NCBI GenBank assembly: GCA_019894975.1
Contig: JAGXNO010000001.1
Span: 96,001 to 160,000 of the forward strand
Length of the DNA: 64,000 bases
Origin: Promethearchaeota archaeon
GTDB taxonomy: Archaea > Asgardarchaeota > Lokiarchaeia > Sigyniarchaeales > SOKP01
Direction of reading: 5' to 3'
Position 1 is the stretch's first letter, and every line of letters starts with the position of its first letter. Below the pieces are notes generated by a model. The model ran no database searches. It worked only from the letters and a program-made list of their open reading frames with translations, and was not told the DNA's origin. Positions 43,310 through 48,249 of this stretch are shown here, one piece after another. Made by a program: the position numbers and the translations under genes.

Positions 43310-43516
43310 ACTTTTACCTTAACATTTGAAAAAATAAGTTTTCTCTGCTAAATTCTGTAATTATGCCTTTTATTATTATTTTTGCAAATCTTTCCCATAA
43401 AGAAATATTAGCTAATCCAATAGATCTATTTATTTACTCAAGAACCTTATTTTATTTTACGATTCAAATCCAAATTATATATATTATTACTTAATTTAAT
43501 TTAAGGGAAATATCTC

Positions 43517-43741
43517 ATGAAAAAAAAGAATATAGCTTTTATTTTGTTTGCAATCGCGGCATCTAATCTTCTTTCAATCCCAATCAGCCTAATGGTGTTC
43601 CCACCTCTTTGGGAACGTATGGAGATGCCTCTTATTGCAAGACGAATCAGTATCACTATTTCACTTGTAGTGGGACTCATTGCATCCATTGGTCTCTTCA
43701 TTGCTGGATTAATCGTTTATATAAAATTCAGAAAAGAATAA
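43517..43741 (+). CDS. Small two-TM membrane protein
   Basis: 74 aa with two hydrophobic helices. Confidence 0.6.
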   Translation: MKKKNIAFILFAIAASNLLSIPISLMVFPPLWERMEMPLIARRISITISLVVGLIASIGLFIAGLIVYIKFRKE

Positions 43742-43986
43742 ATCATACTAATTTTTTATTTGCTCTTTATAAATTCAATAATTCAGGAAACACAAGTGAT
43801 ACATTTTAAAATATAAATTTAGGAAAATTTTTCATTATAATTTTAAATCCATGCAAAACACAAAAAAATGAATAAAAACTATGCTTAGAAATAAGGTTCC
43901 CTTATTTAATTAAGAATAACCTATTTTTCCACCAATTTTAATTCTATTAGCCGAACTAATAAATACCAAACTTAGCATAGATCATC

Positions 43987-44109
43987 ATGAAAGAACATAA
44001 ATTAATGAACTTTGTTAAACGAAACAGAAAAAATATTATTGGAGCTGTAAGTTTGCTTACTGTTTTTATCTTATTCGTGTGGATTGGTAGTGTCGGATTC
44101 TACTGGTAA
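43987..44109 (+). CDS. Single-TM peptide (40 aa)
   Basis: Manual translation MKEHKLMNFVKRNRKNIIGAVSLLTVFILFVWIGSVGFYW*. Confidence 0.5.
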   Translation: MKEHKLMNFVKRNRKNIIGAVSLLTVFILFVWIGSVGFYW

Positions 44110-44112
44110 TTT

Positions 44113-44195
44113 GTTAAAAATTTTAACTAGCTCCAGTTTTAGATTTTCTGGATAACTCTAAAATTGCCTGCTGAAAGCCCGGCAGGAATTTTTTT
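44113..44195 (+). terminator. Three consecutive inverted repeats ending in a GC-rich hairpin plus T-tract
   Basis: GTTAAAA-A-TTTTAAC (44113-27); CAGTTTTAGA...TCTAAAATTG (44134-66); CCTGCTG-AAAGCC-CGGCAGG (44167-86); then AATTTTTTT. Confidence 0.45.
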
Positions 44196-44368
44196 ATATT
44201 TTCTGCATTGAGAATTTTCTTACGATTGTTAAAAAAATTGAAATTGTGTTTGAATTTATAATAAAACTCAATATATTTAATAAACAATTTTTTGTTAATA
44301 CCTCATATAATACGAGTATACCCTCTTTTTCTCTTATTTTTCAAAATTGTTTTTTATTCAGTTTTATT

Positions 44369-44515
44369 CTAAACTGTTTCTATACCGATCAATTGTTTCT
44401 CTAATTCCTCTCTCTCTCCTTCATAGTCATAGGCATTATACCAATCCCATATTTTTAGAGCAAAATCTACAAACGCGTTTCCTTGAGCAGTAAGGATATT
44501 TTTCTCTTCATACAT
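44369..44515 (-). pseudogene. C-terminal fragment resembling a DJ-1/PfpI family protein
   Basis: MYEEKNILTAQGNAFVDFALKIWDW... resembles the DJ-1 C-terminal NIITA.G....FA motif; no N-terminal part is present. Confidence 0.5.
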
Positions 44516-44640
44516 TTCTGTATAAAACAAAAATGTTAAATATAAGCTGTTGATTAAAGTTGATTAATTATTTTTATTTAATAAAAATACAGAAATCTAA
44601 ATTTAAAAAAAACAAATTAAAAGAATTAAATGTGAAAAAA

Positions 44641-47445
44641 ATGAAAAAAATTCGAATTTCGATTATTGTTCTCACTCTTTTAACTCTTTCAATGCTTTCT
44701 TATATTTCAACAGAAGTACTTGGTCAAACTCAAGATAATACCCAAATAACAACAAACCAAGCAGACCAGAAATTTCCGGCAATCTATGGTGATCGCATCG
44801 TATGGATGGACCGTAGGAACGGCAACTGGGATATCTATATGTACGATCTTTCAACGGGTACTGAAACCCAGATAACAACAAACCCATCAAGCCATGAGTA
44901 TCCGAAAATCCATGGTGATCGCATCGTATGGGAGGACTCGAGGAACGGCAACTGGGATATCTATATGTACGATCTTTCAACGGATACTGAAACCCAGATA
45001 ACAACAGATCCCGAAAGACAATGGTTTCCGGCAATCTATGGTGATCGCATCGTATGGGAGGACGGTAGGAATGGCAACTCGGATATCTATATGTACGATC
45101 TTTCAATGATTACTGAAACCCAGATAACAACAAACCTATCAAACCAATGGTCTCCGGCAATCTATGGTGATCGCATCGTATGGGGGGACCAAAGGAACGG
45201 CGACTATGATATCTATATGTACGATCTTTCAACGGGTACTGAAACCCAGATAACAACAGACACATTAAGCCAGGAGTCTCCGGCAATCTATGGTGATCGC
45301 ATCGTATGGGAGGACGGTAGGAACGACAACTGGGATATCTATATGTACGATCTTTCAACGGATACTGAAACCCAGATAACAACAGATCCCGCAATCCAGG
45401 CGGGACCGGCAATCTATGGTGATCGCATCGTATGGCATGATAATAGGAACGGCAACACGGATATCTATATGTACGATCTTTCAACGGATACTGAAACCCA
45501 GATAACAACACACCTATATTCCCAATGGTCTCCGGCAATCTATGGTGATCGCATCGTATGGTGGGACTATAGGAACGGCAACTGGGATATCTATATGCAC
45601 AAACTTCCTGAACTTGTTCAATTTATATATGGTACCAATTCTGGTCCGGTAGATCTAGATCCACATAATGCGTGGGATATTTCTTCATTTGATGTTATTG
45701 AGCAAGTTGTCGAAACGTTATATGCCTACGATTTACTCGATCCTGAACTTGCCCCCATCCCGAGATTAGCATCGGATTTTGGCACATGGTCAATAGATGG
45801 GTTAAGTTACACAGTTCCACTTAAAATGGGTGTCACATTTCATGATGGAACCCCGTTCGATGCTACAGCCGTTAAATGGAATTTTGATAGATTGGCATAT
45901 TTTATGAATTTAGAAAATCCAACTCATATATCCACATTGTATCTTTGGCATGATGGAACACCGATAATTAACGAGGTAGAGATCGTTGACGAATATACCG
46001 TAAAATTTGTGTTAAATAAACCATTTGCGCCATTTGAATCTTTATTATGTTTTAGTGGATCAGGAATTATGTCACCTACATCAACATCTCCAGAGAATTA
46101 TATTGATACGGCAACTGGAGATTTAGTTGGGACGGGTCCTTTTGTATATGATAATTATGAGGTAGGTGTTGAAGTCACCATGCACGCATATGAAAATTGC
46201 TGGGCGGGTGCTCCATATATTGACGAATTAACATTTTCAATTATTCCAGATATAAATGTGAGAAATCTGGCATTATTAGATGGAACTATTGACTTTTTAA
46301 AAACTCCTGACGATTCATTCTTCCAAACATTTAGAGATGATCCAGATATCACCCTTGTAGATGCTGGGCAAGACGCAACAATTCGATTTCTTGGGATGAA
46401 CAACAGGCTTATAAATGTTTCATTTCGAGAAGCGATTTCTTATGCCATTAATTATACATATATGATTGATGAGCTCTTAGGAGGAGAGGCTGTTAGATTG
46501 AAATCTCCAATTCCATTAGGTATAACGAACGCCAACTGGTCATTTAATGTTCCCATCCTAAATCTCACACGAGCAAGACAAGTCATGCAATCCATGGGAT
46601 TCGGCGTAGGGTTCGACGTGGATAAGGATGCTGAATGGACAACCCAAGCGACATTATCTCCTTTTAGGTCAATTAACTATACATATAATTGGGGTAATAA
46701 ATTCCGAGAAGATATGCTGCTATTATTACAAGATAATCTCGGAAAAATTGGAATCAAAGTGATAGATGCTGGTATGACATCGCGTGAGTATTTTGATAGG
46801 CTCCTTGATATACCACCATATAGTAGAAACCATTTAGAGCTTTTTTGGGTAGGTTGGGTTCCAGATTATAACGATCCGAGCAATATTATAAATTCAATGT
46901 TCTCCAAGAATTCTGTAAGTAATTTCGCGCAAGTAGATGATGATTTAGTACAGCAATGGATGGAAGAAGCCTTAATTACTATAAATCCAGCGGAAAGAAA
47001 AGTTTTATATGATAAGATTCAACAACGACTGATTGAAGTAGTCTTTCCATACGCTTGGGGTTATGTAAGAAGAAATTATGATGCGCACAGTAGCAAGTTC
47101 ACTGGTTTTCAATCAAATCCAATGGATAAAGTGTGGTTCTATACTGTTTCCAGCCAATCTCCAGACGTTAACGGTTATATACAAAACCTACCCGATGAGT
47201 TTTTTGTAAATAATGCTGAGCAACGTAAGAACGCATTATCGGAAAAATTCAATGACGTATTCGAACATATAAATAATGGTGAGTATGAAGAAGCGATAGA
47301 CAAATTAAAGCATGATATTCGTCCAAAATGTGATGGAAGTCTCGGTGGCAATCCTCGGAACGATTGGATAACCGATCCAGAAACACAGCAAGAGTTATGC
47401 GCGATGATTGATGCATTAATCGCATTTTTGGAAACATTGATTTGA
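44641..47445 (+). CDS. Secreted beta-propeller (7 repeats) fused to family-5 ABC solute-binding domain and a helical C-terminal domain
   Basis: Signal peptide MKKIRISIIVLTLL, 7 repeats of QITT...PAIYGDRIVW.D.RNGN.DIYMYDL, and SBP_bac_5 motifs (LDPH, VTFHDGTPFDATAVKWNFDR, GTGPF, GWVPDYNDP). Confidence 0.88.
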   Translation: MKKIRISIIVLTLLTLSMLSYISTEVLGQTQDNTQITTNQADQKFPAIYGDRIVWMDRRNGNWDIYMYDLSTGTETQITTNPSSHEYPKIHGDRIVWEDSRNGNWDIYMYDLSTDTETQITTDPERQWFPAIYGDRIVWEDGRNGNSDIYMYDLSMITETQITTNLSNQWSPAIYGDRIVWGDQRNGDYDIYMYDLSTGTETQITTDTLSQESPAIYGDRIVWEDGRNDNWDIYMYDLSTDTETQITTDPAIQAGPAIYGDRIVWHDNRNGNTDIYMYDLSTDTETQITTHLYSQWSPAIYGDRIVWWDYRNGNWDIYMHKLPELVQFIYGTNSGPVDLDPHNAWDISSFDVIEQVVETLYAYDLLDPELAPIPRLASDFGTWSIDGLSYTVPLKMGVTFHDGTPFDATAVKWNFDRLAYFMNLENPTHISTLYLWHDGTPIINEVEIVDEYTVKFVLNKPFAPFESLLCFSGSGIMSPTSTSPENYIDTATGDLVGTGPFVYDNYEVGVEVTMHAYENCWAGAPYIDELTFSIIPDINVRNLALLDGTIDFLKTPDDSFFQTFRDDPDITLVDAGQDATIRFLGMNNRLINVSFREAISYAINYTYMIDELLGGEAVRLKSPIPLGITNANWSFNVPILNLTRARQVMQSMGFGVGFDVDKDAEWTTQATLSPFRSINYTYNWGNKFREDMLLLLQDNLGKIGIKVIDAGMTSREYFDRLLDIPPYSRNHLELFWVGWVPDYNDPSNIINSMFSKNSVSNFAQVDDDLVQQWMEEALITINPAERKVLYDKIQQRLIEVVFPYAWGYVRRNYDAHSSKFTGFQSNPMDKVWFYTVSSQSPDVNGYIQNLPDEFFVNNAEQRKNALSEKFNDVFEHINNGEYEEAIDKLKHDIRPKCDGSLGGNPRNDWITDPETQQELCAMIDALIAFLETLI
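44740..45597 (+). repeat. Seven tandem 126 bp coding repeats (beta-propeller blades)
   Basis: ACTGAAACCCAGATAACAACA recurs at 44860, 44986, 45112, 45238, 45364 and 45490 (period 126); a degenerate first copy starts at 44740. Confidence 0.97.
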
Positions 47446-47754
47446 TAGATGAATAAGTGTCGTTACCTATAAAATAACCCAAATTTTTTTTTTTCTTTTT
47501 GGATTCTTTTCCTTTAAAAGACTTTTTAGTTTTTTTCCTAATATTACTATTTCAGGTATAAAAATCCTTAAATTCCCAGAATTGATTAAAGAAGAAAAAA
47601 GAATCATTGATCCAATCGTAGCACCTACATCAAGTTTGAAAATTCAAGTATTAGATGTTGATTTTATCAGGGATGATTGCTAAACCTCCTGAACTAACAA
47701 CCGGTGATTTCTTTTAATATGTAATATAGACTATTTCGTGATCTTCTCCACTAT

Positions 47755-47916
47755 TCAAGCCAGAACAAGCAAGAACGGTTTCAAAATCTCAACTCTCACA
47801 ACACTATCGTCGCTTTTCTCGATCAATGAAATTAATGAATCTGAAAAAGTTGCTTGATCAAGAATTCCGCTTTGAAAATGCTCTAAAAGAACCTTCGGAT
47901 TTTTTTCTCCTTCCAC
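47755..47916 (-). pseudogene. Short ORF resembling a truncated helical N-terminus of a larger (HEAT/LRR-type) protein
   Basis: GTG start MEGEKNPKVLLEHFQSGILDQATFSDSLISLIEKSDDSVVRVEILK..*; the resemblance is judged from memory only. Confidence 0.35.
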
Positions 47917-48120
47917 ACTAAATCAATACGCTTTTTTCATATTTAAATTTACCCAAATCAATGATTTTCTAATTTATCGAATAAGACTTTGAATATATCT
48001 CTTATTACTCGCAATTTCTCACCAACTAAAATACCCACTTTCTGATTATATTTAATAAAAAAATTTCGCGTTATTCCGATTTCACCACACCTTCCCCCCA
48101 TTTTCCCTTATTCTATAAAA

Positions 48121-48220
48121 ACATAACCTTTAAATACTTGAGTTAATATTTATTTATTAAATTGTGTCAAGAAAGAATTGACAACAAACAATTCATTGTC
48201 AAGAAATAAAATTTGACCAA
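48121..48220 (+). promoter_or_regulatory. Promoter and leader of the grpE-dnaK-dnaJ-tfb operon with twin inverted repeats
   Basis: TATA-like TTTAAATA at 48129-36; TGTCAA-N7-TTGACA at 48165-83; GTCAA-N10-TTGAC at 48198-48217. Confidence 0.6.
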
Positions 48221-48249
48221 CCAAAAATAGTATTTTAAAAGCATAAAAA

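Follow-up and report, generated by a model that had tools for sequence, protein, structure and literature searches.

The DNA analysed here (the window) is a stretch of 64,000 nucleotides from a Promethearchaeota archaeon (assembly GCA_019894975.1, contig JAGXNO010000001.1, positions 96,001 to 160,000 of the forward strand). It contains a gene encoding an exported fusion of a beta-propeller with a family-5 solute-binding protein. The propeller is specified by seven DNA repeat units in which the framework, or scaffold, is almost uniform at the nucleotide level whereas ten codons per unit, the slots, are strongly diverged and are localized on one face of the predicted fold. The reading that we prefer, with a probability of about 0.6, is that the array was shaped by duplication of a block of units and by exchange between blades, leaving a variable binding face on a putative ligand-binding propeller. 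The features of the gene are the following (positions are those of the window):

44632-47445, + strand: fusion gene, exported propeller and family-5 solute-binding protein (open reading frame list; comparison with metagenome contig L034, see below)
44632-44739, + strand: signal peptide, predicted to be of the Sec type, and short linker (MKKMKKIRISIIVLTLLTLSMLSYISTEVLGQ...), AT-rich like the host, with a GC content at third codon positions (GC3) of 0.12 (from the translation)
44740-45621, + strand: seven 126-bp units (42 codons each) of a TIGR04275/TolB-like propeller (Tandem Repeats Finder, NCBIfam, AlphaFold2, Foldseek)
44755-44775, + strand: slot 1 of unit 1 (columns 6-12), recurring every 126 bp up to 45511-45531
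44806-44829, + strand: slot 2 of unit 1 (columns 23, 25 and 30), recurring every 126 bp (column table and strand map)
45589-47199, + strand: family-5 solute-binding domain, with the SBP_bac_5 core at 45754-46917 (Pfam PF00496)
47140-47442, + strand: C-terminal tail of about 100 residues, lacking both a family assignment and a transmembrane segment

Tandem Repeats Finder displays a period of 126 bp in 6.5 copies and, in addition, a higher-order period of 378 bp. Three scaffold blocks of 30, 25 and 21 nt each occur exactly six times at a spacing of 126 bp, as had been noticed in an earlier reading of this DNA made from the sequence alone (hereafter the sequence-only reading), which described them as identical in six of the seven units. 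Unit 7 departs from the repeat after column 34. The slots were defined as ten codons per unit, corresponding to columns 6-12, 23, 25 and 30. In units 1 to 6, 26 of the 30 bases of the slots are variable versus 11 of the 96 bases of the scaffold (Fisher p 2e-14), the mean pairwise difference per site is 0.48 in the slots and 0.04 in the scaffold, and a permutation test on the lengths of the invariant runs gives p < 5e-5. The residues previously listed for the seven-codon loop, for the motif W-x-D-x-R and for the position before DIY agree exactly with the translation. The description of the seven-codon loop as hypervariable holds in general, except at column 10, which is semi-conserved (Q in six of the seven units and in most TIGR04275 members). 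Among the slot residues, S, Q, W, E, N and Y are frequent, Trp accounting for 8 of the 70.

The counting method of Nei and Gojobori gives a proportion of synonymous differences (pS) of 0.045-0.05 in the scaffold and a proportion of non-synonymous differences (pN) of 0.49 in the slots. The ratio of slot pN to scaffold pS is thus about 11, a value obtained from few independent sequences; within the slots, pN/pS is close to 1 and both are saturated. The whole array contains only three synonymous scaffold changes, CAA in unit 1, GAT in unit 6 and AAT in unit 3, so that the near absence of synonymous drift claimed for the scaffold is borne out. All three run from GC to AT relative to the majority codon, the direction expected in a host of 31.6% GC. 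Where two units carry the same residue, the codons differ in 38.5% of the pairs in the slots and in 3.3% of the pairs in the scaffold (these pairs are not independent). Since the synonymous sites of the slots have diverged as well, the slots give the impression of DNA that is older than, or of separate origin from, the young scaffold around it, and point mutation followed by positive selection alone fits poorly; this divergence would argue for mosaic ancestry or conversion no less than for selection. The resemblance to the fungal HET-E repeats, proposed by the sequence-only reading, is therefore found again, with a scaffold homogenised at its synonymous sites and saturated differences at fixed positions. 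Of the concerted evolution with diversifying selection that it proposed at the same time, the homogenisation of the scaffold DNA stands; the selection is a part that we infer, and the divergence of the slot synonymous sites speaks against a simple form of it.

For the structure prediction with AlphaFold2, residues 52-356 were aligned with 67 seven-blade homologues. The resulting model (pLDDT 95.2, pTM 0.92) has 7 blades of 4 strands each, in total 28 strands, and in this model the array folds as a closed seven-blade TolB-like propeller. In terms of repeat columns, strand A corresponds to columns 10-16, strand B to 19-24, strand C to 31-36 and strand D to 41-2. The N-terminal TQIT strand is localized outside the seven A-B-C sets and can be read in the model as the fourth strand of blade 7, which is the usual 'velcro' closure; therefore the array is only 6.8 units long. 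The best structural match detected by Foldseek is TolB (E 6e-17), and the seven-blade propellers of S9 peptidases and of oligogalacturonate lyases give TM values of 0.75-0.79. Columns 6-12 comprise the D-A loop and the start of strand A, column 23 is the end of strand B, and columns 25 and 30 are the two ends of the B-C loop, column 30 preceding DIY. The D-A and B-C connections of a four-strand meander share one face, and the ten slots are thus expected to ring one face around the entrance of the channel. All ten are included in these loops or in the adjoining strand ends, on one face according to the strand topology of the model. By our own count about 19 of the 42 columns are near this face, and the chance that all ten slots fall there is about 6e-5. 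In the model the variable residues are consequently gathered on one face, as the sequence-only reading had anticipated.

A scan of metagenome contigs with the 30-nt scaffold block recovered one contig, L034 (JGI Ga0114925_10060438), which ends inside unit 1. Compared with the window, L034 differs at 3 of 94 bases in the signal region, at none of the 72 bases of the unit-1 scaffold and at 13 of the 30 bases of the slots. The slots of unit 1 read NPADQWS / Q,Y / Y in L034 and NQADQKF / M,R / W in the window, and the QWS/Y/Y states of L034 are those of units 4 and 7 of the window. The differences affect all four bases in either allele, without any specificity for adenine. The upstream locus of L034 is unrelated to that of the window, and the best match in this genome of the gene next to it is 66% identical and located on another contig. 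L034 would thus represent a near-identical gene in another context in a related archaeon, differing in its slots only; for one unit of one allele (a fragment of 34 codons), the comparison suggests a change confined to the slots. No closer allele was recovered from the protein collection: the 90% protein cluster is composed of three versions of this gene only, the search among shorter proteins and N-terminal fragments gave nothing above 76% identity, and the L034 fragment itself is absent from the collection.

L034 also bears on the start of the gene. The open frame reaches from a TTG at 44560 to 47445, and a start at GTG 44632 gives a protein of 937 aa. The GTG is kept in L034, which has AGG where the window has ATG 44641. 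GTG 44632 is the likely start because the similarity with L034 begins just upstream of it and because L034 lacks the ATG. The public start calls conflict, the European Nucleotide Archive (ENA) record using TTG 44560 and the NCBI record ATG 44641.

The repeat belongs to the NCBIfam family TIGR04275 (beta_prop_Msarc), a 40-position model with PF26549 Tricorn_N as its Pfam counterpart in newer releases. It matches the protein in 7 stretches with 492.9 bits (E 7.4e-152, cut-off 85 bits), and single units reach 67-88 bits in the genome search. As this is a 'Methanosarcina' repeat, the likeness to propellers of Methanosarcinales suspected by the sequence-only reading is confirmed. An analysis of 1,441 units from about 116 other proteins reveals that the scaffold residues are conserved across phyla and that the columns of highest entropy are 7, 9, 11, 12, 23, 25 and 30 (3.5-4.0 bits). 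The unit counts in 120 relatives peak at 7 (30 proteins), 14 (48 proteins) and 21. The internal scaffold identity of this gene, 0.92, is the highest of 120 proteins (median 0.67), a rank that is biased because these proteins were picked by similarity to this one. The scaffold pS and slot pN were obtained for seven arrays:

This gene: scaffold pS 0.045, slot pN 0.49
P0050: scaffold pS 0.10, slot pN 0.41
P0076: scaffold pS 0.30, slot pN 0.49
P0064: scaffold pS 0.345, slot pN 0.34
P0107: scaffold pS 0.425, slot pN 0.42
P0105: scaffold pS 0.58, slot pN 0.54
P0118: scaffold pS 0.59, slot pN 0.49

Since their scaffold pS is high, most of these arrays hold their scaffold by purifying selection on old DNA, and this gene and P0050 form a homogenised minority. 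The conserved scaffold with variable slots is, at the protein level, a general property of TIGR04275; only the homogenisation of the DNA is special here. P0050 (L033:1001-4558, JGI Ga0236244_1000047, from another metagenome) is a protein with PKD and disaggregatase repeats whose blades are almost as homogenised. P0105 (L042:501-4175, JGI Ga0115863_1065569) is an unrelated protein that combines SBP_bac_5 with seven TIGR04275 blades in another domain order; because of this order, of the lack of relationship and of the old DNA of its blades, the pairing of the two domains arose more than once.

With the other TIGR04275 proteins, which are cell-surface proteins of Methanosarcina and of many uncultured archaea and bacteria, the protein shares the repeat of 40-42 residues with the near-consensus scaffold PAIYGDRIVWxDxRNGNxDIYMYDLSTxxETQITT, a blade number that is a multiple of seven, identical variable columns and export. 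It differs from them by its partner, a family-5 solute-binding domain seen in one other match only (P0105), instead of the usual PKD, PGF-CTERM, beta-helix and similar modules, by its Asgard host, the relatives of which lack the repeat, and by a homogenisation that is extreme among the seven arrays. Our literature search gave no paper in which TIGR04275 or its Pfam counterpart is named.

Within the array, slot identity is 0.62 between units at lag 3 versus 0.45-0.51 at the other lags (p 0.0095), and three sites follow a strict 1-4-7 / 2-5 / 3-6 pattern of units. Together with the 378-bp period, this lag-3 identity argues for a history of three-unit blocks. Some slot states are common to non-adjacent units: GAT CCC in units 3 and 6, CAA TGG T.T in units 3, 4 and 7, and GAG..GGT in units 3 and 5. 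The four-gamete test had only three informative biallelic sites. The most likely first step would be a recent duplication of a three-unit block. Short-tract gene conversion or unequal recombination between blades would then have made the framework DNA uniform, about ten codons per blade escaping this homogenisation or staying different through selection. The variable codons, rich in Trp, Tyr, Ser and Gln, would ring the entrance of the channel and form a variable binding surface, which most likely captures a macromolecule (peptide, protein or glycan) beside the solute-binding domain. The analysis shows the anatomy of the gene, the fold as a prediction, the position of the slots on one face, the foreign composition, the insertion and the differences confined to the slots between two alleles; the conversion between blades, the selection that maintains diversity and the binding of a ligand are the parts that we infer.

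Several points weigh against this reading. Seven units and one allele fragment of 34 codons are too few to separate selection from conversion, and the conversion tracts, none of which has been demonstrated, must be very short to spare the slots (the invariant runs are of 20-30 nt). The gene is single-copy in the genome, so that there is no paralogous pool of repeats like the one feeding the fungal system. The slots were chosen after inspection of the data, although the family-wide entropy profile supports them independently. The number of units is 7, 4 and 4 across three assemblies of otherwise identical DNA; these assemblies may share one population, so that the unit sequences would not be independently replicated. 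The high GC3 of the array could in principle reflect GC-biased conversion instead of an import. Finally, no ABC permease or ATPase was detected within 10 kb, although a more distant transporter may exist.

Among the other explanations, the one that survives best, while still doubtful in our opinion, is a plain recent amplification from one blade or from a three-blade block, in which the unconstrained loops have drifted with neither conversion nor diversifying selection. Most propeller lineages have documented cases of recent amplification with few synonymous changes or none (PMC9218822). The lag-3 signal does show block duplication, and the old arrays P0118 and P0105 have a slot pN similar to their pS, as expected for neutral loops. 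However, neutral loops cannot outpace the synonymous sites of the same units by a factor of about 10 (0.49 vs 0.045), the synonymous sites within the slots have diverged as well (38.5% vs 3.3%), and the two alleles differ at 13 of 30 slot bases against 3 of 166 other bases.

A stronger claim than the block duplication and exchange that we prefer would be that the array is a working diversification device, independent of reverse transcriptase, in which blades swap loop cassettes and three-blade blocks at a high rate. We consider this quite unlikely. If it were true, one population would bear many binding faces, the seven-unit form and both four-unit forms would co-exist, and the outcome would be a variable surface receptor in an Asgard archaeon, encoded by a gene that also moves between Asgard genomes.

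A further explanation is that the pattern is partly non-biological, a short-read assembly having given a wrong number or order of units or a consensus-like scaffold. The protein collection contains one version of 934 aa (NCBI) and two of 835 aa (ENA). The two ENA contigs, L008 and L009, have names of the MEGAHIT style ('k141') and match the window at 100% identity over 8.1 kb, each of them minus 378 bp. The deletion junctions are different: that of L009 falls on a 65-nt exact repeat, the longest of the array (44949-45013 and 45327-45391, + strand; units 2/5), and that of L008 on a 40-nt exact repeat (45144-45183 and 45522-45561, + strand; units 4/7). Moreover, the genome is a metagenome-assembled genome of 175 contigs, 95% complete, with 8.6% estimated contamination. 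Against an assembly product, the units of the ENA contigs are base-identical to those of the window and together cover the array except for about 140 nt, seven units are the norm of the family and give a closed propeller modelled with confidence, identical scaffold DNA with other slots is present in the independent JGI contig L034, and P0050 displays a like pattern in another metagenome. We therefore regard this explanation as very unlikely. Among 123 proteins of the TIGR04275 family, four units are found in these two versions only; for this reason, and since seven blades close the fold, the four-unit forms are probably assembler shortcuts rather than real variants. In practice, short-read assemblers give this gene four or seven blades, which is a warning.

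Targeted mutagenesis, in which a diversity-generating retroelement or another enzyme-driven hypermutation writes the slot codons, would account for a slot divergence that extends to synonymous sites, since a local mutator would alter these as well. It is nevertheless highly improbable in view of the absence of any RVT_1 match in the 95%-complete genome and of a second copy of the unit DNA to act as template, of allele differences that span all four bases rather than being adenine-specific, and of variable sites that are divided among three patches per unit in all seven units, in contrast to one variable region at the C terminus. The other copies, or the donor or reverse-transcriptase locus, that the sequence-only reading had envisaged were thus not found in the genome, which contains no second TIGR04275 gene either.

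The composition of the array is foreign to this genome. Its GC content is 0.453 versus 0.26-0.38 in the flanks, close to the 46% previously counted by hand for one unit. The array has a GC3 of 0.497, compared with 0.29 for the remainder of the gene and 0.12 for the signal region, and the genome has a GC3 of 0.233 +/- 0.035 (858-nt windows of long open reading frames), only 0.08% of the windows reaching the value of the array. At the scale of a single unit, 0.6% of the 42-codon windows reach it. TIGR04275 is above its cut-off in one of 151 sampled genomes of the taxonomic order, which is this genome, and a search of 134 other genomes of the taxonomic family did not recover the propeller, apart from one match of 32%. 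The gene is part of a segment delimited by comparison with the closest relative:

43310-48249, no strand assigned: inserted segment of 4.9 kb, from the thioesterase (4HBT) gene to grpE (tblastn synteny, intergenic blastn)

In this relative (L043) the 4.9-kb segment is absent, and 283 bp separate the thioesterase gene from grpE. The synteny is supported by amino acid identities of 93% for the acyl-CoA dehydrogenase, 81% for the thioesterase, 78% for GrpE and 90% for DnaK. These comparisons indicate that the whole gene is a recent arrival at this locus and, with the composition foreign to the lineage, that the propeller was imported. The import, given as possible by the sequence-only reading, is thus strengthened by the GC3 (0.50 vs 0.23), by the lack of the repeat in relatives and by the absence of the gene at the syntenic locus. 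The best full-length identities, 64-69%, are with Planctomycetota, Poribacteria, Methanosarcina and metagenome contigs and are dominated by the consensus scaffold. As these matches are scattered over phyla and driven by that scaffold, no donor lineage can be named.

On both sides of the gene, the spacers 43310-44631 (1.3 kb) and 47446-48249 (0.8 kb) are AT-rich (24-30% GC). The left one contains a membrane-like open reading frame of 74 codons (43517-43741) with no family match. No integrase or transposase was detected in the 4.9-kb segment. Two AT-rich direct repeats of 25 nt surround the gene (44267-44291 and 48042-48066, 84% identical); they are weak and were rejected as a target duplication.

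Near-identical repeats with few hypervariable codons are already known from the fungal genes het-d and het-e, where repeat reshuffling was proposed as the source of diversity (Paoletti, Saupe and Clave 2007, PMC1805685), and highly repetitive prokaryotic WD40 proteins have diverse predicted interaction hotspot sites in otherwise conserved repeats (Hu et al. 2017, PMC5587647). The block duplication and exchange that we prefer correspond to what was described for the fungal repeats, and they agree with these hotspot sites and with the recent amplifications reported by Pereira and Lupas (PMC9218822) as well. The pattern is therefore not new, only this example of it. In common with the fungal HET-E/HET-D/NWD WD40 proteins, it has repeats near-identical at the DNA level and few hypervariable codons on the interaction face of a propeller. 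In contrast to them, the propeller is TolB/PD40-like and not WD40, it has about ten slots per blade versus four in the fungal repeats, and it is part of a single-copy secreted protein without NACHT/STAND domain, with no paralogous loci for repeat exchange and no RIP. With the highly repetitive prokaryotic propellers (PMC9218822, PMC5587647) it shares a very high identity of the blades and few synonymous changes; the differences are the saturated divergence of the slots and the availability of an allele comparison. The main text of Pereira and Lupas 2022 (PMC9218822) does not contain 'TolB' or 'PD40'.

Most work on the design of a frozen scaffold with a variable face concerns fungal immune receptors and cytoplasmic WD40 proteins. 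In the present case the design belongs to exported TolB-like propellers, a large family that is essentially unstudied, and its host is an Asgard archaeon, about whose cell surface very little is known; it can come by gene transfer and join a native solute-binding protein. If a ligand were matched to the binding face, this would indicate what these archaea capture or recognise extracellularly. The regular scaffold might also be a natural template for engineered binders.

The SBP_bac_5 domain (PF00496) is detected with E 7e-67 and 226.6 bits, versus a gathering cut-off of 32.4 bits, over positions 2-366 of the 368 of the profile. The scores of all the equivalog models are far below their cut-offs, also the best ones (NikA 127 vs 393 bits, GsiB 121 vs 594) and no ligand class is assigned. 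In Promethearchaeum syntrophicum, an abundant glycosylated extracellular solute-binding protein was proposed to act in chemoreception or peptide uptake (PMC11284389). By analogy with this proposal, a role of the fusion protein in capture or sensing at the cell surface is plausible. The protein resembles the family-5 proteins (OppA, DppA, NikA) and that of Promethearchaeum syntrophicum by its SBP_bac_5 domain and its export, and the latter also by its Asgard host; it differs in that a whole propeller stands between the signal peptide and the binding domain and that no transporter genes are nearby. The blades have their best structural match in TolB of the Tol-Pal system, which has PD40-type repeats as well. 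Unlike TolB, the model has seven blades, the TIGR02800 score is 106 bits versus a cut-off of 343 bits, nothing matches the N-terminal domain of TolB, and the host is an archaeon. The Pfam scan detected no NTPase domain in the fusion protein. The C-terminal tail has no Pfam match at E<0.05. A FIMAH identity, considered as a possibility for this tail, was rejected after the Pfam scan and after BLASTP, which gave no similarity to a FIMAH-annotated protein.

The neighbouring genes within 10 kb encode short-chain dehydrogenases/reductases, an AMP-binding enzyme, the acyl-CoA dehydrogenase, the thioesterase, GrpE-DnaK-DnaJ, the transcription factor TFB and an aldolase. Two open reading frames on the minus strand of the array, 44672-45106 and 45110-45538 (about 143 codons each), are open only through the repeat periodicity and are not genes. 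A scan for promoters and terminators gave a number of sites no higher than in shuffled sequence.

The relatives match residues 344-880 of the fusion protein only, with up to 55% identity, and there are many paralogs per genome. In the three large paralogs scanned, the domain is fused to NosD/beta-helix, PKD, Peripla_BP_6 or TIR modules. From these matches, the solute-binding part belongs to the lineage's own paralog family, freely fused to other extracellular modules. The same genome encodes a protein of 1831 aa (G000:C128, L037:4132-9624) that combines SBP_bac_5, NosD/beta-helix, Peripla_BP_6 and TIR_2; these domains suggest the architecture of an extracellular sensor, with a TIR domain, in an Asgard archaeon. 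Relatives within the genus (G002, G006, G007, G023 and others; L011-L019, L035, L036) contain many SBP_bac_5 paralogs per genome, several of them in frames of 1300-2400 aa. In two large ones that were scanned, SBP_bac_5 is fused to PKD, beta-helix, glucodextranase-B or Peripla_BP_6, and the solute-binding domain thus seems to be a general building block of large surface proteins in the genus.

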